From: Prevotella sp.
GTDB taxonomy: Bacteria > Bacillota > Clostridia > Christensenellales > UBA1242
DNA: 64,000 nucleotides
Direction of reading: 5' to 3'
Assembly (NCBI GenBank): GCA_023666145.1
Contig: JAMPCO010000003.1
Span: 3,027-67,026, forward strand
Part shown: piece by piece, positions 4,217 to 20,979 of the stretch
How the letters are laid out: every line of letters starts with the position of its first letter
How positions within the stretch are numbered: position 1 is the stretch's first letter
Notes under the pieces: generated by a model
Told to the model about the DNA's origin: nothing
Seen by the model: only the letters and a program-made list of their open reading frames with translations
The model's database searches: none
Translations under genes and position numbers: made by a program

Positions 4217-6166
4217 TTATATACGCGTACCCTGGTGGATACGGGCATAACGAAGTTTGCTGGCTAACGGAACAAACGGAGTCCCCGAGCCTTCATAAAA
4301 TTTGCCGAAGAATTCGACGAACTGTAAACGGGCATTATGGATGTACGCGGACAACAGGCTTAACGCGATGTTGAGGGCGTGGAACAAGACCGCTACAATT
4401 CCACCCAAAATCATCCCGATGAAGCCGATGTCCGCCAACATCCCGCACAAGAAATTGGCGACGTACGCAATTACGCAACCAACCAAACCCACCCCGAACA
4501 AGCGGGCGTAGGAGAGCAGGTCGCTGAAATAATTGACCAATTTATACGCGCCAGAAAACATCCCCAACACGTAACCACCGAAGCGGCGCCCAATGCCGTT
4601 AAACAGCACAACGCCCGCAAAACCGACCAAGGTTACGATCAAACCAGGTACCATCAGTGGTTGGAACCAATCAACCACCGCGTAATCCAACGGAATCAAT
4701 TTTTGGATTAAAGCCGGGAACGCTAAAGTCAAACCAACGAACATAACCAAGTTCGGTAAGGCTTTGCCAACGCCGTCGATAAAGTGTCGCAAACGCAATT
4801 GGTTAATGAAGTTTAATAAATTGCCGACCGTGATTTGAATCACACCCAAATAAAGGGAAAGGGCGAAGAACAGTGTTGCGTCGTTACCTAATGGGTCCAG
4901 CCAAGTTTTGTTAAGGATGAACGTCGGCAAATTCAAACCAAAAAAACTGTTAAACAATAAACCCCACAGTGCCGCCGAAATACCGCCCATGCAGAACAAC
5001 GCCAGTAATTGACGTGTACCCCCTTGGGGGCGTTTCACGCACAAGATGACCGCGGTAATTACGGACAGCAATAAGCCGTAACCCAAATCGCCAAACATGG
5101 AACCGAAAAAGAAGAAATAGAAGAAAGCGACAAAGGGGTTCGGGTCAATGTCGTTGCGGCCAGGGGCGCCATACATCATGGTAATGGCGTTATACGGTTG
5201 AACCAGTGGTGAATTATGTACTAAGGCGGGCGGGGTATCGGTGGCGGTCGCGTCTTTCAAGGAAACAACAATGTTTTTGTCGGTCTGGTGAATCAGGGTG
5301 GTAAATTCGTCCGCGGAGCGTGCCGGAATCCAGCCATGCACCACAAAACACAATTTGGTTTGAATCGTGGCGGTCAAAATGTCGAGCGTATCAATTTCGT
5401 TCAACAAATAATCGTAATAAGTTTTTAACAAATTGACTTGCTCGAGGGTGGGGTGGTGACTGCGCGTATTTTCCGTTAATTGCTCCGTCAAGGTTTGGTT
5501 TTGTTGGGACAGGTAATCAATTTGTTGCAAGGGCGTTCGTTCAAAACTGTAATAGGTGGGGAACGGAGTCAAACCGTAATCCAAAATCGTTTCGGCCAGC
5601 GGTTGGTTATCTAAGTCACCCATGATGACCACCAATAAATGGTTGTGGGTGGTGGGATAAGTTTCGTAGATGAAATCTTGGGTGTCGATGTCGTTGGTAA
5701 AACGGGTAAAATCCGCGGTTGCGATTAAACCCGCCAGCACGAAAGTAGTTTTGGTCGATTTTAATAAATGGGCGGGGATGGGTAAATCACGGAACTTTTG
5801 CAGGTTAGTAATCGTGGTTTGGTTTAAGTTAATTTGAGTTTGTAAATCGGTGGCTTCAATTTTGGCGTGTTCCAATTTGGTCAGCAAGGTTTCAATTTGT
5901 TTTTGTTTTTTGGTGACGCTTTTCAAGGCTTGGTAAGTTAAATCGACGGGTTTGCTGTCGGCTTGCAAGTATTGCAGCGCGCTGGTGACGCGGTTCAATT
6001 CGGCGGTGTAATCGTTCTTACGGGCTTGGTCGTCGGCGTCCAAAGGGGTATCGCTGTTTTTGTAAAAGGTAATTTGAAAGTTACCCGTGGCTTTCAGAGT
6101 ATCAATCACTTTTTTTAAGGCGGTGCGCTCCCCAACCAGGGAGACTTTTTTCATCTTGGCAATCAT
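4217..6166 (-). CDS. ntpI: V-type ATP synthase subunit I (a-subunit homolog)
   Basis: 649 aa. It starts MIAKMKKVSLVG, has a soluble N-terminal half and a polytopic C-terminal half ending LSAYIHNARLQFVEFFGKFYEG, which carries the conserved Arg region. Confidence 0.93.
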   Translation of the reverse strand: MIAKMKKVSLVGERTALKKVIDTLKATGNFQITFYKNSDTPLDADDQARKNDYTAELNRVTSALQYLQADSKPVDLTYQALKSVTKKQKQIETLLTKLEHAKIEATDLQTQINLNQTTITNLQKFRDLPIPAHLLKSTKTTFVLAGLIATADFTRFTNDIDTQDFIYETYPTTHNHLLVVIMGDLDNQPLAETILDYGLTPFPTYYSFERTPLQQIDYLSQQNQTLTEQLTENTRSHHPTLEQVNLLKTYYDYLLNEIDTLDILTATIQTKLCFVVHGWIPARSADEFTTLIHQTDKNIVVSLKDATATDTPPALVHNSPLVQPYNAITMMYGAPGRNDIDPNPFVAFFYFFFFGSMFGDLGYGLLLSVITAVILCVKRPQGGTRQLLALFCMGGISAALWGLLFNSFFGLNLPTFILNKTWLDPLGNDATLFFALSLYLGVIQITVGNLLNFINQLRLRHFIDGVGKALPNLVMFVGLTLAFPALIQKLIPLDYAVVDWFQPLMVPGLIVTLVGFAGVVLFNGIGRRFGGYVLGMFSGAYKLVNYFSDLLSYARLFGVGLVGCVIAYVANFLCGMLADIGFIGMILGGIVAVLFHALNIALSLLSAYIHNARLQFVEFFGKFYEGSGTPFVPLASKLRYARIHQGTRI

Positions 6167-6168
6167 GA

Positions 6169-6441
6169 TTAGGCACCATAAACTGCTGTGATAATGTGCG
6201 CCACCGCCGCATCCATTTTGGCTTGGGGAACATTGATGTTAACGGTGGGTGTCGCCAGCGGTTGGGGTTGCGGTAAATTTGTTACCGCCGCCGCAATTTC
6301 AGCATTCGTATTATTCTCAATTTTAGTTAAGCGTTGATAAGTATCTTTTTCAATTTCACGCACTTGCACATTGGCCTTCGCAATGATTTGTTCAGCCTGG
6401 TCTTCGGTGTCATGGAGCGTTTTCAAGATATCGGCTAACAT
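6169..6441 (-). CDS. Small V-ATPase stalk subunit (G/H-like; position of E. hirae NtpF)
   Basis: The ATG at 6441 gives a 90-aa helical protein (MLADILKTLHDTEDQAEQIIAKANVQVREIEKD...). It is the first gene of the operon, and a promoter sits 7 nt upstream. The 157-aa track ORF would extend through that promoter. Confidence 0.7.
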   Translation of the reverse strand: MLADILKTLHDTEDQAEQIIAKANVQVREIEKDTYQRLTKIENNTNAEIAAAVTNLPQPQPLATPTVNINVPQAKMDAAVAHIITAVYGA

Positions 6442-9002: not shown

Positions 9003-9709
9003 ATAATTTGACTTTTGCGCACAAATTTCCAATCGCCACTGGCTAAATTGCCCAAAGTCAATTTGCCTTCTTGCAAACGGATCAGGTGGGTGACTTGCAG
9101 GCCTAAGGTTTCAAACATTTTGCGAATTTGCCGATTGCGTCCTTCGTGGATGATGACTTGGATTTGGGTACGGTCGTGTTGCAGATAGGAAAATTCCGCG
9201 GGTGCCGTTTGGACACCATCGATCTTGACCCCGTGGGATAAAGTTGCTAATTCGGCCTTGGTGACGGGGCGGTTGACCGTAGCGTGATAGATTTTATTGA
9301 CGTGGGTGGACGGATGCGTTAATTGCTTGGTCAAAGCGCCGTCGTTGGTTAGCAGTAGCAAACCACACGTCTGATAATCCAAACGGCCAACGGGGTACAG
9401 GCGCACCGTTTTTAACAGGGTCGCGTATTGCTTGGGATTTTGGCGAATCACGTCCAAAACGGTGGTTCGACCTTGGGGGTCAAAAGTGGTGGTAACCACG
9501 CCCGCGGGTTTGTTCAATAAAATGTAGACTTTGTCGGTCGGGGGTTGGACGGGGCGGTTGTCGACCGTTACGGTCGCATCATCGGGAATGATGGTGGCTA
9601 AATTGGTAATCACCACCCCATTCAAACGGACACGTCCCGCGGTGATCAACGTTTCCACATGGCGGCGGCTGCCGAGTCCACACAAAGCAAGATATTTGTT
9701 TACGCGCAT
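8999..9709 (-). CDS. rluB: Pseudouridine synthase, RsuA/RluB family with S4 domain
   Basis: The ATG at 9709 gives MRVNKYLALCGLGSRRHVETLITAGRVRLNG (S4 domain). The catalytic motif GRLDYQTCGLLLLTNDG is present. The track ORF's upstream extension is hydrophobic junk. Confidence 0.9.
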   Translation of the reverse strand: MRVNKYLALCGLGSRRHVETLITAGRVRLNGVVITNLATIIPDDATVTVDNRPVQPPTDKVYILLNKPAGVVTTTFDPQGRTTVLDVIRQNPKQYATLLKTVRLYPVGRLDYQTCGLLLLTNDGALTKQLTHPSTHVNKIYHATVNRPVTKAELATLSHGVKIDGVQTAPAEFSYLQHDRTQIQVIIHEGRNRQIRKMFETLGLQVTHLIRLQEGKLTLGNLASGDWKFVRKSQII

Positions 9710-9717
9710 CAAAAAAA

Positions 9718-9726
9718 AGTATATCA
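9718..9726 (-). promoter_or_regulatory. Extended -10 promoter of rluB (leaderless-type)
   Basis: The minus strand reads TGaTATACT, then 8 nt (tttttttg), then ATG (9709). No Shine-Dalgarno is present. Confidence 0.45.
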
Positions 9727-10535
9727 TGAAAATGATGAATATCCTAATCGCAAATGTGCGGAATTTAGAGTCACGGGAATTAAAAGTGTTGGCGGGTGAA
9801 CTGGCAAAAAAACACACGGTGACGGTTTGTTCGCTGGAAGGTCCAGGACGCCAAAAGGGTAATGCGTTTTCTTACGGGGGTTTCCCAATTAAGTTCAAAC
9901 AGATTTCCAATTATACGGTTAACGGCGTGCGGATTCCCGCCTATAAATTTGACGGCACACCCGCGGATATGATTTCGGTCATGTTGGGCAACATTATGCA
10001 ACACCGTAAACCGCATTTGGTGATTTGTGGGATTAGCAACGGGATTTCGTTGGGTACCGACGTCTTTTGCTCATCGAACATTGGAATGGCGATGCAAACC
10101 GCTTTCAATAATATCCCGTGTATTGCGGTTGGCGTGCCAATGCAAATCGGGGGACACAGCGAAGCCGAATTGTTACCGGCGGCACAATTCATCGCGAAAA
10201 ACGTGGAAAAATTTGCCAAAGCCAAATTACCGACCGATACGTTCTTGAATATCACGCTTCCGATTGTCAAAAAATACGACGATTACCAAGGTGTTGGCAT
10301 TTCTTCCATGGATAATTTGACCAAGATGACGCGCTATTTGGAAAAAGTGGATTGCAAAGGCAACAAATACTACTGGGCTCAATTGGTTGAACGCGACAGT
10401 TCCCAAAAAGCCACGGTGGCACCGACCGCGGGCATGGCGTATTTCAAAAAGAATTACATCATTATGGCTCCGTTGACCTATAACTGCACCGACGCCGCCC
10501 ATTTGGCAGAAATGCAAAAGGAGGTCGTCAAATGA
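9726..10535 (+). CDS. SurE-like 5'/3'-nucleotidase paralog 1, catalytic DD motif absent
   Basis: SurE fold markers are present: GTPAD, CGISNGISLG, IAVGV. The N-terminus reads MNILIANVRNLE where SurE has NDDG. Three candidate ATGs lie at 9726, 9732 and 9735. The stop overlaps the next gene (ATGA). Confidence 0.8.
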   Translation: MKMMNILIANVRNLESRELKVLAGELAKKHTVTVCSLEGPGRQKGNAFSYGGFPIKFKQISNYTVNGVRIPAYKFDGTPADMISVMLGNIMQHRKPHLVICGISNGISLGTDVFCSSNIGMAMQTAFNNIPCIAVGVPMQIGGHSEAELLPAAQFIAKNVEKFAKAKLPTDTFLNITLPIVKKYDDYQGVGISSMDNLTKMTRYLEKVDCKGNKYYWAQLVERDSSQKATVAPTAGMAYFKKNYIIMAPLTYNCTDAAHLAEMQKEVVK

Positions 10536-11302
10536 AAATTTTATTGACGAACGAAGCGGGTTGCTTCCACCCTGGGATTGTGGCGTTGGCGAAAGAACTT
10601 TGTAAAGACCACCGTGTGTGTATTGTCGCACCGTTGACGCGACAGAGTGGTGCGGGACATTCTTTAACGGTCGACCAACGTCCGTTGCACGCACAACAAT
10701 GGTTTGTGTTGGACAACGTGAAAATGTGGTCGGTAGATGGTACGCCGTGTGATTGTGTTGCGTTGGCGTTGGATAAATTGTTATTAGACAAACCCGATTT
10801 AATCATTACGGGGATTGACCCCATCAATAATCTGGGCAATTTGATTTACAGCAGTGGGGTGGTCGCGGCCGCCATGGAAGGGGCGATTCAAGGCATCAAA
10901 AGTATTGCCATTAGCGCTGCGATTAAAGCGGAAAAGAAAGAACGGGCTTACCGTCATGTGGCGAAGTATGTTGCGCGTAAGTTAGAATTTTTGGTGACCA
11001 AAACACCTGATTACGGGGTCTTGAACGTGAATTTCCCCGACAAAGTGCAACCTAAGAAAGTGATGCCCGCCGCTTTAACGGACGGAATTTTTATCAACGA
11101 ATACGAAATTGAAGTCAATCCGTTTGGCTCGACGTTTGCTTGGGTTAAAAATCCGTTAATGGAATTCGGCTTGGACGCTTACGAACAAAAAGGCGATTTA
11201 TGTTGGTTGAAACAGGGCTACATTACTTTGACGCCCTTGAAATTGGATTTATTAAAAGGCGAGGCTTTAACGGCCTTACAAAAGGCAGGGATTAAATTAT
11301 GA
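10532..11302 (+). CDS. surE: SurE-like 5'/3'-nucleotidase paralog 2, DD motif replaced by EA
   Basis: MKILLTNEAGCFHPGIVALAKEL compares with canonical MRILLSNDDGxxAPGI. APLTRQSGAGHSLT, GTPCDCV and YSSGVVAAAMEG all align to SurE. GGAGG Shine-Dalgarno lies 8 nt upstream. Confidence 0.88.
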   Translation: MKILLTNEAGCFHPGIVALAKELCKDHRVCIVAPLTRQSGAGHSLTVDQRPLHAQQWFVLDNVKMWSVDGTPCDCVALALDKLLLDKPDLIITGIDPINNLGNLIYSSGVVAAAMEGAIQGIKSIAISAAIKAEKKERAYRHVAKYVARKLEFLVTKTPDYGVLNVNFPDKVQPKKVMPAALTDGIFINEYEIEVNPFGSTFAWVKNPLMEFGLDAYEQKGDLCWLKQGYITLTPLKLDLLKGEALTALQKAGIKL

Positions 11303-11961
11303 GTATCAACATTGCGATTGACGGACCCGTCGCCAGCGGAAAAGGGGCGGTCACCAAAGGGTTGTCGGCTAAATTGGGAATTCCCGCATTGGATACGGGT
11401 GCCGCTTACCGTGCGGTCACCTTGTATCTGTTGGAAAATAACATCGATTTGCACGATGAAAAACGGATTTTGATGACCTTGAATAAAATCGAATTGCGTT
11501 TGTACGTCACAGACCACCATGCGGTGCGGGTTTTTACCCAAGGGCAAGATGTGACGCCGCGGATTCGCGACAACCGTGTCAGTGTGGCGGTGCCCACCGT
11601 GGCGGCGTATGTTGGCGTGCGTGATTACGTCAACCGGCAAATTGCGTTGGTGGCAGCGCAAGGTGATTGCATTATGGAAGGGCGTGACATCGGGACGGCG
11701 GTTTTGCCCCAGGCTCAATACAAGTTTTATTTGACCGCTTCGTTGGAAGTGCGTGCCAAACGTCGGAAAGCGGATTTGGATGCCAAGGGCGAACATTTGT
11801 CTTTATTGGAAGTGATGGCGCAAATTAAGCGGCGCGATGAACAGGATATGACCCGCACGGTGGCGCCGTTGAAACAGGCTCCTGATGCCATTTACCTGGA
11901 CAACAGTGATCTGACGTTGGAACAAACCATTGACACAATGGCAAAATACATTAAAATGTAA
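11299..11961 (+). CDS. cmk: Cytidylate kinase
   Basis: IAIDGPVASGKG P-loop and overall Cmk-like sequence. ATGA overlap with the upstream gene. Confidence 0.93.
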   Translation: MSINIAIDGPVASGKGAVTKGLSAKLGIPALDTGAAYRAVTLYLLENNIDLHDEKRILMTLNKIELRLYVTDHHAVRVFTQGQDVTPRIRDNRVSVAVPTVAAYVGVRDYVNRQIALVAAQGDCIMEGRDIGTAVLPQAQYKFYLTASLEVRAKRRKADLDAKGEHLSLLEVMAQIKRRDEQDMTRTVAPLKQAPDAIYLDNSDLTLEQTIDTMAKYIKM

Positions 11962-11964
11962 GTA

Positions 11965-12330
11965 ATGGAAACGATTGTGCACGTGGAAAACGGCGAATAT
12001 TTGGGACAGACACGCTTTGCTAACGATTTGTTACGCGAATCGTTAATGCTGTGCGTGAAAGAAGTGCGTGGTGTGGCGGGGATTGGCAAACATATGCGCA
12101 GTAACAAAAACAAAATTAAAAATTTGAAAATCAGCCGCTGTAAGGACAGTAACCATTTGATCGTCGACATTAACCTGTTGGTGTCAACGGGCTTTTCCGT
12201 GCCTGACGTGGCTTACCGCGTGCAAGAAGCCGTGTTGAATACCGCCACGCAATTTACGAACGATAAAATTGACCAAGTCAATATCTATGTACGGGGCGCA
12301 AAGTATGGGGCAAGCACTAAGCAGAAGTGA
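11965..12330 (+). CDS. Asp23/Gls24 family envelope-stress protein (YqhY-like)
   Basis: 121 aa with Asp23-family features (...VRGVAGI...VDINLLVSTGFSVPDVAYRVQEAV). It lies immediately upstream of nusB, as yqhY does in Bacillus. Confidence 0.85.
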   Translation: METIVHVENGEYLGQTRFANDLLRESLMLCVKEVRGVAGIGKHMRSNKNKIKNLKISRCKDSNHLIVDINLLVSTGFSVPDVAYRVQEAVLNTATQFTNDKIDQVNIYVRGAKYGASTKQK

Positions 12331-12706
12331 GTCCCGCGAAGTTGCTTTCCGTTTGATTTTTGCCATGGGACAGCAGACGGTTTGGGATGCGGACGCGTGG
12401 AATTTGGCGTTGGACGGTAAAACGGCACCGACACCCGAACAACAATACATCACCAAAATTGTGGAAAAGTTTACCGAACTACGAACGGAGATTGATGCCA
12501 AGATTAGTGCGCATTTGCAGAAATGGACGTTGGATCGTTTGCGCCAAACCGACTTAGCCGCGTTACGTTTAGCGGCGACCGAAATGGCGTTGGGAACTGT
12601 CCCTGTACCAGTGATCATTAACGAAGCGGTCAGTTTAGCCAAAAAATACGGGGAGGCATCCAGCGGTGCGTTCGTGAACGGGGTGTTAGCACAACTGGCG
12701 GAGTAG
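12305..12706 (+). CDS. nusB: Transcription antitermination factor NusB
   Basis: The ATG at 12305 gives MGQALSRSESREVAFRLIFAM...AALRLAATEM...INEAVSLAKKYG, which is NusB-like. The start is uncertain (track TTG at 12269). Confidence 0.88.
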   Translation: MGQALSRSESREVAFRLIFAMGQQTVWDADAWNLALDGKTAPTPEQQYITKIVEKFTELRTEIDAKISAHLQKWTLDRLRQTDLAALRLAATEMALGTVPVPVIINEAVSLAKKYGEASSGAFVNGVLAQLAE

Positions 12707-13887: not shown

Positions 13888-15455
13888 TGCTGAATACCTT
13901 ACGCATTCAAAATTTGGCTTTGATTCCGGCGGTAGAAATCAATTTCGGTGCGGGGTTTAACGTCTTAACGGGGGAAACCGGGGCGGGTAAATCGATTATT
14001 ATTGGCAGTTTGAATTTTATTTTTGGTGACAAGTTATCGGTGAATGCGATTCGTCACGGGGCGGACTTGGCACGGGTGACCGCGGTGTTCGATGATACGA
14101 TTATCGTGCGTACTTTGCACGCGAACGGCAAAAGTGAAATTCGGGTCAACGATGAACCCATGACTTTGAAAGGTTTACGGGAAGTGGCCAGCGGTTTGAT
14201 CGATATCCACGGACAGCACGACACCGAAAAATTGTTGGACCCCAAAAACCATTTAAGGATTCTGGACGCGTTTGCCCAAACCGATTTGACCGCTTACCAA
14301 TCCGCGTATGCGCAGTTACAGGCGTTACGGAACGAATTGGCGACTTACGGGGATAACCCCGCCGAGCGAGCGCGCTTGTTAGATTTATACCAGTACCAAA
14401 TTAACGAAATTGAACGGGCACATTTGTCGGCGGACGAAGAAGAAAGTTTGAACCAACGGGCTTTGGTGTTACGCAACGCCGAAAAATTAGCGGAAGGTTT
14501 ACAAACCGTAGTAGATAATTTGACCGACGCGGACGGCGCGTTGGGTGTGGCGCAAAAACGGCTTTTAGGCATTCAACAATACGATGAAAAGTTACAGACA
14601 CTCGCCACACGTCTGAACGCCGCCAGTAGTGAAATCGGTGACATCTTCATGGAGTTACGGGATTATGCGGAGCAGACCGATTTCAGTGCGGATGCGTTAG
14701 AAAGTGTTTACGACCGTTTGGATGAAATCAAAAACTTGAAACGCAAATACGGTGCGACGGTGACGGATGTTTTGGCGTTTGCGGAAAAGACGAAAGCCGA
14801 ACAGACGCGCTTATTACAAGCGGGGGATACGATCGACCAATTGCAAACCCAAATTGCCGCCCAAACCGCGGTGGTGACCCAGTTAGCGACCCAATTGACG
14901 GCCGTACGTCAAGCGGCGGCCAAGGAATTGGCAGCCCAATTAACCACCCAATTAAAAGACCTTGGCATGGAACAAACCCAATTTGATGTCCAGTTCAATG
15001 CGGTTACCCCCAAAAACAACGGCGCGGACGCAGTTGAATTTCTGTTTTCCGCGAATGTGGGCGAACCCGTGCGCCCGTTAGCGCAAATTATTTCGGGTGG
15101 GGAAATGAGCCGTTTAATGTTGGCATTGAAAACGGTCGCAAATCCCGAACCCCAAAAGACCTTGGTGTTCGATGAAATTGATACGGGCATTTCGGGTAAA
15201 ATGGGGCTGGCGTTGGCGACTAAGTTGGCGGCGCTGGCGCGTCAATCCCAAATTATCGTGGTCACCCATTTGGCGGCGGTAGCCGCGGCGGGGCAGACCC
15301 ATTTCTTAATTCAAAAAAATGTGGAAGCGCACCAAACCATTACTAACGTTTATCCGTTAGATGCGCCCGCCCGCGAACAAGAAATCGCGCGGATTATCGG
15401 TGGTGGTGACACGGCGCTGGCCCATGCACGGGCTTTGTTGACTGCCCAAGGTTAA
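13887..15455 (+). CDS. recN: DNA repair protein RecN
   Basis: Starts MLNTLRIQNLALI. Walker A GETGAGKS, a long coiled coil, the C-terminal signature ISGGEMSRLMLAL and Walker B LVFDEIDTG. Confidence 0.95.
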   Translation: MLNTLRIQNLALIPAVEINFGAGFNVLTGETGAGKSIIIGSLNFIFGDKLSVNAIRHGADLARVTAVFDDTIIVRTLHANGKSEIRVNDEPMTLKGLREVASGLIDIHGQHDTEKLLDPKNHLRILDAFAQTDLTAYQSAYAQLQALRNELATYGDNPAERARLLDLYQYQINEIERAHLSADEEESLNQRALVLRNAEKLAEGLQTVVDNLTDADGALGVAQKRLLGIQQYDEKLQTLATRLNAASSEIGDIFMELRDYAEQTDFSADALESVYDRLDEIKNLKRKYGATVTDVLAFAEKTKAEQTRLLQAGDTIDQLQTQIAAQTAVVTQLATQLTAVRQAAAKELAAQLTTQLKDLGMEQTQFDVQFNAVTPKNNGADAVEFLFSANVGEPVRPLAQIISGGEMSRLMLALKTVANPEPQKTLVFDEIDTGISGKMGLALATKLAALARQSQIIVVTHLAAVAAAGQTHFLIQKNVEAHQTITNVYPLDAPAREQEIARIIGGGDTALAHARALLTAQG

Positions 15456-16489
15456 TTGGCAGAAGTTTCGTCTTCGGTGTGGTGTTTACGATTACGTTTG
15501 CGGCGGGGCGTCTTTTTGGGTTTGAGGGTGTGACGGTTAGGAAACATCCAAACCGCGACCGCGACGCAGGCGACCACCATGACGGCACAAACAATAAAAA
15601 ACGAACCCAGGTTATCCAGGTGGTCAAAGGGTAAATCGACGTTCATACCGTAGATACCCGCAATCAAGGTCGGAATCGCCAAGATGATGGTAACAATGGT
15701 TAACAAACGCATCCGTTCGGCTAATTGGTTACTGACCAGGTTGTTGTAGGTGCTCATGGTTTCGGTCATCAATTCACGTTGCAGGTTACAGGTGGCGAAG
15801 GCTTGCTTGATTTCGACGATAATGTTTTCCAAAGTTTCGACGTCGTCTTCGGTCAAGTTCTTTTGTGCCAGAGACTTTTCTGCTACCACAATGTTTTGGC
15901 GTAAAGACGAAGCAAAGTAAATTAACGCATTTTTCAGACGCATTAACTCACGGAGGTTGGTGTCCGTGTCACGGGATTGCATTAACTTGCTTTCTAAACG
16001 GGTACTGGATTTGTCAATCATGCGCAAATAAGTTTCGTACAGGCTGTGGAAAGCCAATAAGCATTGGTAATTGATTTTTTGACTGTCCAGCAGACTGTTG
16101 GTGCGTAAAGTGCCTTGTTTAATTTCTTGAAATTTGAAATGGTCTTGCAAACAAACGGTCACGGTTAAATTCCCCTTTTGAATCATGGATAACGGGATCG
16201 TGGTGTAAGGCGCATCACTGCTGTGGTCACGTTGCACCACGGGAATGTCAAAGACGGTTAACTTGTAATGGGTGTCGTCGTCTTCGTCCAAGCGCGGACC
16301 TTCTTCGTCGTCCAAGGCCGAACGCACGAAATCTTCGGGAATCTGCAATTCATCAATCACACGGTGGACTTCGATTTCGTTCGGGTTGGTTAATTGCACC
16401 CAAATGCGTTCGTTGGTCGGCAAAGATAATAAATCGTGGGTTTCGATTTTTACATATTTGCCGTCACGGTTGACCATTACGTTTGTCAT
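15452..16489 (-). CDS. corA: CorA-family Mg2+/Co2+ transporter with basic C-terminal tail
   Basis: GMN motif (GIYGMNV) between two C-terminal TM helices. The ATG at 16489 (MTNVMVNRDG) has a promoter 6 nt upstream. The stop overlaps the recN stop by 4 nt (convergent). Confidence 0.9.
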   Translation of the reverse strand: MTNVMVNRDGKYVKIETHDLLSLPTNERIWVQLTNPNEIEVHRVIDELQIPEDFVRSALDDEEGPRLDEDDDTHYKLTVFDIPVVQRDHSSDAPYTTIPLSMIQKGNLTVTVCLQDHFKFQEIKQGTLRTNSLLDSQKINYQCLLAFHSLYETYLRMIDKSSTRLESKLMQSRDTDTNLRELMRLKNALIYFASSLRQNIVVAEKSLAQKNLTEDDVETLENIIVEIKQAFATCNLQRELMTETMSTYNNLVSNQLAERMRLLTIVTIILAIPTLIAGIYGMNVDLPFDHLDNLGSFFIVCAVMVVACVAVAVWMFPNRHTLKPKKTPRRKRNRKHHTEDETSAN

Positions 16490-16495
16490 GTGCTC

Positions 16496-16525
16496 ATTGT
16501 ATGCCTGTTTGTGAAATAAAGTCAA
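16496..16525 (-). promoter_or_regulatory. sigmaA-type promoter of corA (leaderless-type)
   Basis: Minus strand: TTGACT (16525-16520), 18 nt spacer, TACAAT (16501-16496), 6 nt, then ATG (16489). Confidence 0.55.
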
Positions 16526-16545
16526 GAATTGTTGCAAATAATAAC

Positions 16546-16574
16546 TTGCTAATCTTGCGGATTGGTTTTATAAT
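16546..16574 (+). promoter_or_regulatory. sigmaA-type promoter of the large surface-protein gene (leaderless-type)
   Basis: TTGCTA (16546-16551), 17 nt spacer, TATAAT (16569-16574), 7 nt, then ATG (16582). No Shine-Dalgarno. Confidence 0.6.
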
Positions 16575-16581
16575 TATCAAC

Positions 16582-19500
16582 ATGGACAAATTGAAAAGAA
16601 GTTTGAAACGTTTGATTGCACCCGCCATTGTGCTTTTGTTGGTGGCGATTATGGGTGTGTTTAGCCCGGCCGTTTCGGTTGCGGCGGCATTACGCGTGAA
16701 CCCAATGAGCGTGACAGATACCAATCCTTTTACCATTACTAACTTACCCGCACGTACCGTGGAATTGGGTACTGATGCGGCGACGGTCACCGTGCCAACA
16801 ATTAACAACAACGGTGTGGTGGTGTTGAGTCATGCGGGTAAAAACATCAGTACGTTCCCCGATAACAAATATACCTACCAAGAAATCGGTCAATACGAAT
16901 GGCGTTTTTACACCGATGACACCAAAAAAGTGCTATTTGACACTTACACCGTGACCGTAACCGATACCACCTACGGCATGACGATGCCCGACAACGTGGT
17001 GACGGTGGCACCGAAAGATCTCGACCAATTAACCTTACCGTTGCCGTCCACTTACCGTGTGGCGGAAAAAACCGTGGAAGTTACCGAAATCGTTGAAGAC
17101 GAAAGCGGTAAATACGCGGTCGTTACTTTGCAAGACGATGATAATCAAAAAGTAGATTATATCTTACGTGCCAACATTACTTTGGAAAATGAAAATCTGA
17201 ACGACAAAATTACGGCGTTTGACCAAGATGGCATGGTCATTGATTTGAGCGATAATAAGAACACGGGTGTTTTGAAAGTTACTTACCAATTATTGAACGC
17301 CACCAGTCAAAAACTTTTGGTGGCGGTACCTTTGTCCGACATTGAAATTAAAAATATCACTAAAAGCCAAGTGACGTTTGCGAATATCCCGACCGCGCCC
17401 AGCGTGAAAAGTTTAGCCTATTATTCCAGCATCAGTTTAACCGCCCCCACCGCAGATAGTGCTAAAGTCGGTTCGACTTCGTTCAACGTTGAAGCCCAAA
17501 CCACCATCTGCCAAGTGCAATGCTACTTGTACTCCGACGAACCCAGCGATTGGACCGCTAAAAACAGTAAAATTCACAATTTGACCGTGGAAAAAGAGGA
17601 CGGGGCATGGGTCGTGAAAGAAAACGGCACCGCGGTCGACTATTTGGAAATTGATGACTTGACCGTGAAAATTAAAGCGTTGGGTTGGTATCGTTTCCAA
17701 TTCCAAACATCGACTTTGTTTGGTTACCAATTAGACGACGATTTTGACACCGACGACGTCAACATCGAACAAGACCCCAACAATTCCTACGTCCGTTATT
17801 GGAGCGACAGTATCCGTATCTACCGTGACGCCGTTGAACCCAGTTTCGCTTGGGTGGCTAATTACAACGAAGATGACAGCGCGACCATCGAAAATTACAA
17901 TAAAAATTTCAGCACCTTGCAAGAATATGATGTTTATTTGCCGATGACCGAAAAACCCGATGCGACTACGTCACAAAAAATTACCATTAACTATGACGGT
18001 TTAGTCTTGCCTGCAATTTTCCCACACGACAATGCTACTCCGTTCGAAAAAATGAAAGTCACTGCCTTCAATATTGAACAAATCCAAAATGTCGACGGTG
18101 AATCCATTACGTCGAATGATAACTATGTTTACAGTGGCAGTGAAAATGACAGCAAAACTTTTGTTTACGATATGACGGATCCTTTACAAATCCAATTCGT
18201 CATTGACGGCGCTACGCGTGCACAAGGCAACAATGTTGTGCAACTTTACCAACGTGAAGGTTTATACCGTGTACGCATCGTGGTGGAAGAAGAACAACCG
18301 ACTTTTGAAGATGGCACCCGTTACAGCGGTGGTTACGCGAATACCAAAACCAAATATTTGTACTTTTATGTCGACAGTGATTACAAATGCGGTACGGACG
18401 GTGAAAATTCGCCTGTGATTGACACCAACAATGTGTTCCAAGTCAGCGATGTTTATTTGTGGGAAGGTCACACCTTCGATTTCCGTATCCCGACCGTGAC
18501 CGATGCCCATACGCCCGCCGATGACATCCAAATTGATTATTATTTGGTCAATGCTGATGATCAAAGCAAAACATATAAATTGGATTACAATGTTAACGCG
18601 TCACACGTTACGGTTGATTTGGATGATTTGGACGGATTCGATACCAAAGATTTGTTGACGGACGTCGATTACTACATTTATGCGGTGGCACGCAATTTCA
18701 ACGGAATGCAAGCCAAATTGAAAGTAGAAGCGAATCCTGTCATCAAAGATGAAAATGTCGCCGATAACAAATATTTCGAGGAAGCCTTGTTTAGCAAATT
18801 AGACACTGACGAAATCGCACAATATGGTTATGCGTGGAAACGTGCCGCGTTTACCATTTACGCGACCAAAGACAGCAGTAAAGCCGATGCAGACTTCACG
18901 GTTACACCCAACAACGACAATTCCTACAAGGCGGGTGAAAAAGTGGTTTTCGACAGCATCAAAGTAGCATGGAGCGATAATACCGTCGTGGACGGACAAA
19001 TGACCGTCGCCGTGTATTTAATGAAAGACAACGGTACGCGTGTGCCAGTCAACATGGTAAACAGCAGTAACAGTTCCGCGGAAATTGTCAGTGCGGTGGC
19101 GTTTAACGCCAGCAGTTACGAAGCCACGGATTGGAGTTTCACTCCTGGTGTCGGTGGTACCTACATCCTGGTGATCACCGCCAAAGAACACGCCAGCAGT
19201 CAAATCCAAACCTGCGTGAAAACCATTGAAGTTGCATCCAGTGGTGATTGGAACATTACTCCGTTAAGTGTGTCTCCTGCCGCGGCCACCAATTACACGA
19301 TTGATGCCACGATCAGTTTAGGGGAAAGCGCCGTGTTGCCCAATTATGTGGTCAGTAAAGACGAACAAGGTGGCACAAAATATTTTGCGAAAAATCGTCG
19401 TTTGTATCCATACGACGATAACGGCAATGTTACCGACGGACCCGAAGGTTACTATACCATTACCGTGATGGGGGTCAACGATCCGAATTGTATCATCGGT

Positions 19501-20979
19501 AACAAATTTGTCCCGAACAAAACGGGAACTTACATTTTCCAATATACTTTTACGAAAGACAATGTCTTGAAAACCACCAATTATGTGGTGCAGGTTAACG
19601 ACAGCAGCAGTGGTGTTGCCAGCATCCGTATGGGCGAAGAATACGACGACAAAACTGTTTTGCCCAATGCCGATGCACCAACAGACGCTGATAGTGGAAA
19701 AACTACTAACAAGGTTGGTGACTTCACCTACGTTGTCGAAACTCGTACCGCAGACAATCCAGCGTACGCGATTATCTTACCAGAATTTATCGCGTCGAAC
19801 TATGGTGCCGCAACTGATTTCGTGGTCGACAGTGCGTACCTGTATGATTATTTGGAACCGATATACGAAGAAAAAGAAGGCAAAATGGAAATTACGGGTT
19901 ATCTGTATCCCGCGATTGCGATCCCGATGCCGAACGTCATTGCCGATACCACCAGTTCCGACGAAGTAGAAATCACCGTGCAAAAGAGCGGCAGCAGTAA
20001 CTACTTGGTTTCCAGCAAAAAATTGAATGCCGGTGGCAGCAGTAACAAAGCCAGTGTGATTACCCAAATTGATGGTTACTATGTTTTCCGCCCCGATGGT
20101 AAATTCTCCAAAGATTGCAAGGATACAGAAAAGTACAATCCCCAAACTTATCAACTTGCCGCGGTCAGTACCAGCGGTGCAACGGGCGTTTACACCGTGT
20201 CTTACAAAACCAATAGTACCAGCGTGAACTTCAACGTGACCATTGGTAACTTGGAAAATGGGGAATTGGCTTTCAATGAAGGCTTCTTAACCTACAACAA
20301 TGACGACGGCAAAGGGGCGCAAGCAATTACCGATACGGGCGACACCAACAACGTGGTGATTGAAAAAGTCGACGGTCATCGTTATGTTACCATTGATTTG
20401 TCCAAACTTTATTTTACGGGCAACAGTGATATGCAAGACTTGATCAATGAGGGACCGAATCCCGCTAACGACAACGATGGTTGCCACCCCGACCATTTGG
20501 ATACGGAATACCTTTATAAAAATGTGAGTGTTACGGTCAGTTACGAAGGTAGTTCGTTTATCAGTACCAGCGATTGGTCAGATGCGGATGATGAAACCAA
20601 AGCGCTTAAAATTTATGGTGACCAAGGTGACGGTTACAAATATCAATACAAATTTGATTTAACTGGTGGCAGCGGTACCTACAAAGTCAACGTTTCCATG
20701 GTTAACAAATACACTGGTAATACGATTTCGAATTCGATTGAATTTACGATTGATGTGGATGCAACCAACAAAAACACCAACCTGAACACGGTTTGGGGTA
20801 TTATCCTGGTGGTGTTGTCACTTGGTCTGTTGGCGGGTATGGTCTTCTACTTCGTGAAAACTGCACGGGCAACCCGTTTCGTTGATGCGCCCAGCGCCGT
20901 CAAGGATAAAAACAAAGTTAAGAAGGACAAACCTGTCGCCCCAAAAGCGGTGGAGGCACCCCAAGAAGATGTTAAATAA
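16582..20979 (+). CDS. Large (1466 aa) secreted, C-terminally membrane-anchored surface protein built of Ig/PKD-like beta-sandwich modules
   Basis: The ATG at 16582 gives the signal peptide MDKLKRSLKRLIAPAIVLLLVAIMGVFSPAVSVAAA. The G-x-Y-x-hydrophobic strand motif recurs (GQYEWRFY, GWYRFQFQ, GLYRVRIV, GTYILVIT, GTYIFQYT, GVYTVSYK, GTYKVNVS). The C-terminus has a TM helix (VWGIILVVLSLGLLAGMVFYFV) and a Lys-rich tail. No LPXTG, SLH or choline-binding motifs were seen. Confidence 0.85.
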   Translation: MDKLKRSLKRLIAPAIVLLLVAIMGVFSPAVSVAAALRVNPMSVTDTNPFTITNLPARTVELGTDAATVTVPTINNNGVVVLSHAGKNISTFPDNKYTYQEIGQYEWRFYTDDTKKVLFDTYTVTVTDTTYGMTMPDNVVTVAPKDLDQLTLPLPSTYRVAEKTVEVTEIVEDESGKYAVVTLQDDDNQKVDYILRANITLENENLNDKITAFDQDGMVIDLSDNKNTGVLKVTYQLLNATSQKLLVAVPLSDIEIKNITKSQVTFANIPTAPSVKSLAYYSSISLTAPTADSAKVGSTSFNVEAQTTICQVQCYLYSDEPSDWTAKNSKIHNLTVEKEDGAWVVKENGTAVDYLEIDDLTVKIKALGWYRFQFQTSTLFGYQLDDDFDTDDVNIEQDPNNSYVRYWSDSIRIYRDAVEPSFAWVANYNEDDSATIENYNKNFSTLQEYDVYLPMTEKPDATTSQKITINYDGLVLPAIFPHDNATPFEKMKVTAFNIEQIQNVDGESITSNDNYVYSGSENDSKTFVYDMTDPLQIQFVIDGATRAQGNNVVQLYQREGLYRVRIVVEEEQPTFEDGTRYSGGYANTKTKYLYFYVDSDYKCGTDGENSPVIDTNNVFQVSDVYLWEGHTFDFRIPTVTDAHTPADDIQIDYYLVNADDQSKTYKLDYNVNASHVTVDLDDLDGFDTKDLLTDVDYYIYAVARNFNGMQAKLKVEANPVIKDENVADNKYFEEALFSKLDTDEIAQYGYAWKRAAFTIYATKDSSKADADFTVTPNNDNSYKAGEKVVFDSIKVAWSDNTVVDGQMTVAVYLMKDNGTRVPVNMVNSSNSSAEIVSAVAFNASSYEATDWSFTPGVGGTYILVITAKEHASSQIQTCVKTIEVASSGDWNITPLSVSPAAATNYTIDATISLGESAVLPNYVVSKDEQGGTKYFAKNRRLYPYDDNGNVTDGPEGYYTITVMGVNDPNCIIGNKFVPNKTGTYIFQYTFTKDNVLKTTNYVVQVNDSSSGVASIRMGEEYDDKTVLPNADAPTDADSGKTTNKVGDFTYVVETRTADNPAYAIILPEFIASNYGAATDFVVDSAYLYDYLEPIYEEKEGKMEITGYLYPAIAIPMPNVIADTTSSDEVEITVQKSGSSNYLVSSKKLNAGGSSNKASVITQIDGYYVFRPDGKFSKDCKDTEKYNPQTYQLAAVSTSGATGVYTVSYKTNSTSVNFNVTIGNLENGELAFNEGFLTYNNDDGKGAQAITDTGDTNNVVIEKVDGHRYVTIDLSKLYFTGNSDMQDLINEGPNPANDNDGCHPDHLDTEYLYKNVSVTVSYEGSSFISTSDWSDADDETKALKIYGDQGDGYKYQYKFDLTGGSGTYKVNVSMVNKYTGNTISNSIEFTIDVDATNKNTNLNTVWGIILVVLSLGLLAGMVFYFVKTARATRFVDAPSAVKDKNKVKKDKPVAPKAVEAPQEDVK

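Follow-up and report, generated by a model that had tools for sequence, protein, structure and literature searches.

The SurE-fold gene pair and its surroundings

The 64,000-nucleotide (nt) stretch of contig JAMPCO010000003.1 that was analysed here (the window; assembly GCA_023666145.1) contains two adjacent genes for SurE-fold proteins, which we call paralog 1 and paralog 2 and which both differ from the 5'/3'-nucleotidase SurE at the catalytic site. An initial annotation of this DNA, made from the sequence, described them as two translationally coupled genes at the head of a surE-surE-cmk-asp23-nusB-xseAB-recN string. We found that both proteins match the Pfam SurE family PF01975, with 84 bits for paralog 1 and 158 bits for paralog 2 (gathering cutoff 22.1), that the genes are joined by an ATGA overlap, and that the downstream members of the string (cmk, asp23, nusB, xseA, xseB and recN) all have Pfam matches. 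The coordinates are given in Table 1. A search by tblastn revealed no third, canonical surE within the 64-kb window, and no RNA element was found in it by Rfam.

Table 1. Features of the SurE-fold gene pair and its immediate surroundings (positions in the window)
Feature	Position	Strand	Remarks
rluB-like S4/pseudouridine-synthase gene	start at 9709	-	divergent; Pfam
Promoter-like site, TTTACG + 17-nt spacer + TATCAT	9699-9727	+	consensus scan; putative function
Paralog 1	9735-10535	+	intact open reading frame, 266 amino acids, SurE-fold protein
Codons of V8, R9 and N10, paralog 1	9756-9764	+	
Shine-Dalgarno GGAGG of paralog 2	10520-10524	+	within the 3' end of paralog 1; 7 nt to the ATG at 10532
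ATGA overlap, paralog 1 stop/paralog 2 start	10532-10535	+	translational coupling, read from sequence
Paralog 2	10532-11302	+	intact open reading frame, 256 amino acids, SurE-fold protein
Codons of E8 and A9, paralog 2	10553-10558	+	shortly before C11 and F12
Second ATGA overlap, paralog 2/cmk	11299-11302	+	coupling of cmk to paralog 2
cmk (cytidylate kinase)	11299-11961	+	PF02224, 220 bits

The AlphaFold2 monomer models of paralog 1 and paralog 2 had a predicted local distance difference test (pLDDT) score of 87 and 89, respectively. For both models the best Foldseek match was the T. maritima SurE structure 1ILV (paralog 1, E-value 1.1e-21, template modelling (TM) score 0.79-0.85; paralog 2, E-value 1.6e-26, TM score 0.81-0.84), and the best matches in the PDB were SurE structures only (1ILV/1J9J). 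The models thus indicate that both proteins retain the SurE fold, with a Rossmann-like N-domain, a C-terminal beta-hairpin and a helix; the segments for the C-terminal helix and tetramerisation loop are present and conserved in both. Measured by the NCBIfam equivalog models of functional SurE, both proteins are atypical. Paralog 1 scored under all 13 cutoffs (its best score was 116 bits against a cutoff of 271), and paralog 2 under 12 of the 13, exceeding only that of TIGR00087 (150 bits against 135.1).

The initial annotation let the pair extend from 9726 to 11302. Its end was correct, while 9726 proved to be a non-conserved upstream ATG. In an alignment of 11 orthologous loci the ATG at 9735 (MNILIAN...) was the sole conserved candidate, so the start of paralog 1 was placed there. 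It had also been pointed out that the apparent loss of the catalytic motif would be explained if the N-termini were mis-called and an upstream in-frame start restored an NDDG sequence. The in-frame stretch upstream of paralog 1, which reaches back to 9531 and overlaps the divergent rluB-like gene, contains no NDDG, and for paralog 2 the frame offers no start between the preceding stop and its ATG. As, in addition, residue 1 of both proteins aligns to residue 1 of SurE, a mis-called start hiding the motif was rejected.

Only 25 nt separate the start codons of the rluB-like gene and paralog 1, and an invariant -10-like TATCAT within the promoter-like site ends 7 nt ahead of the paralog 1 ATG. 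Across the 11 orthologous loci the block AAAAAAAGTATATCAT does not vary, while the 7 nt that precede the ATG do. There is no Shine-Dalgarno sequence between the promoter-like site and the ATG, so the mRNA of paralog 1 is possibly leaderless; this arrangement suggests a leaderless transcript for the putative paralog 1-paralog 2-cmk operon.

Active-site residues in the two proteins and their families

In SurE, the DD motif and a strictly conserved asparagine (N95 in T. maritima, N94 in T. thermophilus) are the metal-binding, catalytic and water-orienting residues (PMC8475336), and in the Salmonella enzyme D8, D9 and the loop 39-51 have been found to be important for function (PMC3567009). As a canonical reference we used 136 SurE representatives (clusters at 50% identity) obtained from a scan of 1.84 billion representatives. 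Residues are numbered as in T. maritima SurE, and the alignments were made by phmmer to solved SurE structures. Each of N7, D8, D9, S39, N95, N99, S107, G108 and T109 was 100% conserved among the canonical representatives, and NDD followed by G or S was present in 135 of them.

The N-termini MNILIANVRN of paralog 1 and MKILLTNEAG of paralog 2 align exactly to MRILVTNDDG of T. maritima, and it is clear that, as initially proposed, both proteins have lost the two aspartates. The GINxGxNxG loop is altered as well; paralog 1 has GISNGISLG and paralog 2 GIDPINNLG there. The further claim that the fold markers are retained was true in part. The segment SGxGHS is present in paralog 2 and missing from paralog 1, which reads RQKGNAFS, and the YSGTV-like segment has lost its threonine in both proteins (CSSNIG in paralog 1, SSGVV in paralog 2). 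The residues at the canonical positions are compared in Table 2. Three features of functional SurE, the DD motif, Asn95 and the S-G-T segment, are lacking in both paralogs. Ser39 is replaced by arginine in paralog 1; it is present in paralog 2 of the window but varies across the family of this protein. In paralog 1 of the window the pocket has acquired three basic residues, R9, R39 and K41.

Table 2. Residues at canonical SurE positions in the two window proteins
Position	Canonical SurE	Paralog 1	Paralog 2
8	D	V	E
9	D	R	A
10	G	N	G
39	S	R	S
42-44	GHS	GNA	GHS
95	N	S	D
99	N	S	N
107-109	SGT	SSN	SGV

Homologues of paralog 1 (family 1) form about 100 clusters at 90% identity, down to 35% identity, and those of paralog 2 (family 2) about 118, which extend down to 42% identity before the first canonical SurE. 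Among 98 members of family 1, position 8 is valine in 85%, position 9 is arginine or glycine, N10 occurs in 86%, position 95 is S, N or G, and N109 is found in 91%. In addition, K/R41 is present in 92 of the 98 and N96 in 97, and the family has the motif (F/Y)CSSNIGMAM. R9 and R39 occur in the branch of the window, and K/R41 throughout. The 117 members of family 2 have the N-terminal motif N-E-x-G-C-F, with E8 in 96%, C11 in 99% and F12 in 100%; position 9 is alanine in 64% and otherwise E, S, K or Q, position 95 is aspartate in 71% and otherwise C, S or R, and V109 occurs in 87%. The canonical S39 was found in only 24%, and this is the least conserved column of the family, while N7, G10, G42-H43, N99 and S107-G108 are kept at 86-100%. 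D8 occurs in none of the 98 members of family 1 and in one of the 117 of family 2. It is kept in the family 1 half of a fusion protein described below (P0223), which lies outside the 98-member set. We also noticed that one member of family 1 (P0370, 348 amino acids, from a 1,055-bp contig of the Joint Genome Institute (JGI)) carries an extra C-terminal tail of about 80 residues, of low complexity and rich in Lys, Pro and Glu, which is absent in the others.

The former ligand positions 9, 39 and 95 had conservation ranks of 0.27-0.50, which argues that the site has been relaxed or disused and not rebuilt around a fixed new ligand. We also considered a compensatory swap in paralog 2, with the change of D9 to alanine offset by that of N95 to aspartate, and rejected it, as positions 9 and 95 did not covary in the 117 sequences. 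In 22 of these, E8 is the only carboxylate left at the ligand positions; many members of family 2, though not all, have an acidic residue at 95 or 96. The pocket of family 2 is about as conserved as the rest of the protein (0.73 versus 0.72).

A survey of the distribution of the NEAG and NVRN variants, which had been proposed as a check, showed that both families are confined to genomes of uncultured Clostridia/Christensenellaceae-like bacteria. According to the record titles, from which the taxonomy was taken, the named members of both are metagenome-assembled genomes (MAGs) of uncultured 'Clostridia', 'Eubacteriales', 'Christensenellaceae' and 'Bacillota/Firmicutes'. The sources of 24 species-level genome matches were the rumen or hindgut of ruminants and the termite gut. 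With the family 1 profile, about 12 clusters of this family (50% identity) were found in the whole library, followed by an abrupt drop in score to canonical SurE, and the lineage is therefore narrow. One record (L015, CAYJJH010000002.1) is titled 'uncultured Prevotella sp.' and yet contains, at 52-67% identity, the Clostridia-type locus with rluB, the SurE pair, cmk, asp23 and nusB; this bin is probably mislabelled or contaminated.

Pairing, fusion and selection

In each of the 28 loci that offer enough sequence, paralog 2 comes directly after paralog 1, down to 34% identity for paralog 1 and 40% for paralog 2. Most of the pairs overlap by 4 nt, as is the case in 17 related loci, and in the others the genes are separated by a few to some tens of nucleotides. 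The pairing was also kept in three extra members of family 2, which were picked because their contigs were missing from the list of paralog 1 homologues. Even in the case of the most divergent member of family 2 (P0220, which reads NDEG), a family 1 gene overlaps it by 4 nt. The two lists of homologues have 37 contig sizes in common.

The flanks of the pair vary, while the pair itself is invariant. It is followed by cmk in most loci, with the exception of L087, L082 and L022, and the alternatives that we observed in place of cmk were der-plsY, plsC-polA and an inserted MNT/HEPN pair. Whereas the neighbours in the window are rluB, cmk, asp23, nusB, xseAB and recN, those among the relatives include plsC, NUDIX, der, plsY and polA. 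Several of the variants deserve a short description. In one relative (L088), the SurE pair and cmk are separated by an inserted nucleotidyltransferase/HEPN (MNT-HepT-like) toxin-antitoxin pair (4796-5429). Three relatives from termite gut have two cmk homologs after the SurE pair (L020, 7217-9067; L086, 5436-7316; L089, 7495-9329), the second of which is fused to, or adjoins, a PlsC-like acyltransferase and a NUDIX domain; at L020 these form a single cmk-acyltransferase-NUDIX protein of 617 amino acids. At L010 (5619-6277) the match to cmk is split across two frames (5619-5825 and 5822-6277), which suggests a frameshift or an assembly error in this MAG.

In two separate sub-lineages the genes are naturally fused in frame, in the order paralog 1-paralog 2, to encode a protein of 526 amino acids. 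One of these (P0223, MDR0384110.1) comes from a Christensenellaceae MAG, and its second half has no start codon. The DNA of its junction is identical in three records, namely the JGI and NCBI copies of one 34,205-bp contig and a separate Logan contig. The other fusion (P0369) was found in other samples and has a different linker. The two are 45% identical to each other, and each half is closest to unfused pairs encoded by separate genes, with 59-77% identity. As each fusion is thus nested among unfused pairs, the sequences imply two independent fusion events. Such fusions are the classical 'Rosetta stone' evidence that both proteins act as one unit. SurE is known as a domain-swapped dimer or tetramer, with an interface of about 3,600 Å2 and an active site close to the dimer interface (PMC3567009), and by analogy the fusions would fit a fold that forms intimate domain-swapped dimers.

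Selection was examined in nine closely related loci by the method of Nei and Gojobori. The ratio of nonsynonymous to synonymous differences per site (pN/pS) was 0.10 for paralog 1 and 0.12 for paralog 2, compared with 0.16 for cmk and 0.095 for rluB. It is clear that both paralogs are under strong purifying selection, comparable to that of their housekeeping neighbours. There were no stops or frameshifts in either gene, and both open reading frames were intact at every locus examined. Decay into pseudogenes is ruled out by these two observations.

Interpretation of the pair and neighbouring genes

The initial annotation regarded a heteromeric pseudo-nucleotidase or a changed chemistry as plausible, and the loss of ligands in both families, the purifying selection, the pairing in 28 of 28 loci and the two fusions speak in favour of such a view. 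The explanation that we prefer, with a confidence somewhat better than even, is that two diverged SurE-fold proteins, the products of these genes, form an obligate heteromer devoid of the canonical Mg2+-dependent phosphatase centre. One transcript and translational coupling would provide both subunits, and the likely form would be a domain-swapped dimer of paralog 1 with paralog 2, possibly a dimer of such dimers. Paralog 1 would clearly be a true pseudoenzyme with respect to SurE chemistry, with a pocket that is now basic or neutral, because the four metal ligands D8, D9, S39 and N95 and the threonine of the SGT segment are all replaced, partly by basic residues. Paralog 2 retains a larger share of the pocket (N7, E8, G10, G42-H43, N99 and S107-G108), but it too would most likely be incapable of the canonical Mg-dependent hydrolysis, because D9, N95 and T109 are lost and position 39 is free to vary in its family. 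Selection would act on the assembly and on the remodelled pocket, most plausibly so that a phosphorylated, nucleotide-like ligand is bound or sensed without being hydrolysed; alternatively, the heteromer could have a structural or regulatory role, and not one in bulk nucleotide dephosphorylation.

Several points weigh against this explanation. The interface between the two proteins is deduced from the fusions and the gene order. The carboxylate of E8 in family 2, together with the near-invariant C11, F12 and H43 and the frequent acidic residue at 95 or 96, could form another metal-binding or catalytic site. In family 1 the pocket loops still slightly exceed the remainder of the protein in conservation (0.77 versus 0.67), which fits a new active site and a binding site alike. 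Finally, the housekeeping neighbours (cmk, plsC, der, nusB, xseAB, recN) offer no specific functional clue.

The possible new site in paralog 2 is central to a second explanation, which we consider possible and clearly less probable. Here paralog 2 would be a working phosphohydrolase with a remodelled centre, made up of E8 with D95 (or an acidic residue at 96) and H43 and/or C11, perhaps with a softer metal and another substrate, and paralog 1 would be its non-catalytic regulatory or stabilising partner. The score of paralog 2 above the TIGR00087 cutoff, the canonical residues that family 2 has kept and its near-invariant E8, C11 and F12 all agree with this, the replacements of D9 by alanine and N95 by aspartate leave two carboxylates in paralog 2 of the window, and the pairing and the fusions are equally well explained. 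However, the absence of covariation between 9 and 95, the sequences in which E8 is the sole carboxylate, the variability of position 39 and the frequent replacement of T109 by valine do not point to a maintained centre; and as D9, S39, N95 and T109 are invariant in canonical SurE, tolerance to their loss would be unprecedented. Quite unlikely, in our opinion, is an entirely new chemistry or function, in which the heteromer would carry out another reaction, possibly a metal-independent one, or serve as a nucleotide sensor, by means of residues specific to each family (C11, F12, H43 and E8 in paralog 2; K/R41, N96, C106-S107-S108-N109 and GGH in paralog 1). These residues, which lie in the former active-site loops, are highly conserved, purifying selection acts strongly on both genes, and the basic residues that replace acidic ligands in paralog 1 (R9 and R39 in the branch of the window, K/R41 more widely) could bind phosphate directly; on the other hand, we found no precedent in the literature searched, the family 2 pocket is no more conserved than its surroundings and the gene context holds no clue to a substrate.

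The two proteins might also be independent, each forming homo-oligomers with unrelated roles, so that their adjacency would be a mere relic of duplication. Tandem duplicates adjoin by origin, and the identity between the paralogs, only 24%, speaks for a long divergence, but adjacency and order are constant in the 28 loci although the flanking genes change, the 4-nt coupling overlap is maintained and in-frame fusion has occurred twice, which makes this very unlikely. The chance that the pair is an artefact of mis-called starts, decaying pseudogenes or sequencing errors is practically negligible, as the starts are conserved and align to residue 1 of SurE, the intact reading frames have a pN/pS of about 0.1, and both families consist of some hundred distinct clusters each, from many samples. 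A wider view would be that the SurE fold has been re-purposed in this lineage, as a heterodimer or a single-chain pseudo-dimer with a non-phosphatase function, either into a metal-independent sensor or regulator that binds nucleotides or phosphate or into an enzyme with new chemistry, and that in both cases it has taken the place of canonical SurE in these organisms entirely, with Glu8, Cys11, Phe12 and His43 of paralog 2 and Lys/Arg41, Asn96 and the Cys-Ser-Ser-Asn segment of paralog 1 as the residues concerned. This wider proposal is tentative, and we regard it as rather doubtful.

The nearest known system is the canonical SurE/UmpG 5'/3'-nucleotidase (E. coli P0A840; T. maritima 1ILV/1J9J; S. 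typhimurium 2V4N; T. thermophilus 2E6x), which belongs to the same Pfam family and has the same two-domain fold with a Rossmann-like N-domain, a beta-hairpin 'tetramerisation loop' and a C-terminal helix (Foldseek TM score 0.8). The motifs GTPxDC, PDL(V/I)xxGI and LNxNxP are common to it and both paralogs. It differs by its DD motif, Asn95 and Thr109, which are missing from both, and by S39, GHS and N99, which are missing from paralog 1 as well. Moreover, canonical SurE is a homodimer or homotetramer made from one gene, whereas here there is a fixed pair of genes, sometimes fused. Another SurE-related protein, Pby1 of S. cerevisiae, consists of an N-terminal SurE-like domain and an ATP-grasp/TTL-like domain and is a partner of Dcp2, an interaction that has been assigned to the C-terminal domain (PMC7293026). 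It resembles the pair in that a SurE-family domain is used in a protein which is itself known for protein-protein interaction and not for nucleotidase activity. Pby1, however, is eukaryotic and is fused to an unrelated domain and not to a second SurE copy. A more general parallel is provided by heteromers of enzyme and pseudoenzyme paralogs, in which catalytically dead duplicates pair with, or replace, an active homo-oligomeric partner. The duplication of a homo-oligomer, the asymmetric loss of catalytic residues, the purifying selection and the obligate co-occurrence are features of such systems too, whereas in our case both partners lack the canonical ligands and there is no obviously active subunit.

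In the literature searched on SurE pseudoenzymes, paralogs, SurE-like proteins and PF01975 we found no description of SurE pairs without the DD motif. Paralog 2 and the fusion are labelled '5'/3'-nucleotidase SurE' by automatic annotation. As the residue-level features are lacking and nearly all the NCBIfam cutoffs are missed, the proteins should not be filed under this name; in metabolic reconstructions of the rumen and termite-gut organisms concerned it is probably an error. The physiological role of SurE, a widespread stress and stationary-phase protein, is poorly defined. The only SurE genes of this clade that were seen at the locus form a co-evolving hetero-pair without the DD-Ser-Asn site, under selection of housekeeping strength and twice fused; this is a natural experiment which indicates that the fold has a selectable role independent of the canonical catalytic centre. 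The pair is moreover a tractable example of how a homo-oligomeric enzyme becomes a hetero-oligomer of degenerate paralogs. It is best described as a probable SurE-fold heteromer, lineage-specific, obligately paired and twice fused, that lacks the canonical centre and probably has a function other than the usual one of SurE.

Some minor observations were made on other genes of the window. The nusB gene as called, with a TTG start at 12269 (region 11965-12706), shares 62 nt with the end of the asp23-family gene, and the matched asp23 and nusB regions overlap similarly in relatives; the actual start of nusB is probably further downstream. Further along, an open reading frame of 1,498 amino acids (16483-20979) has a signal-like hydrophobic segment at the N-terminus, a transmembrane segment at the C-terminal end, and a Lys-rich tail, and judging from these features it probably encodes a large surface protein. 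It adjoins a gene for a CorA-type Mg2+ transporter, which is located on the reverse strand at 15452-16537.

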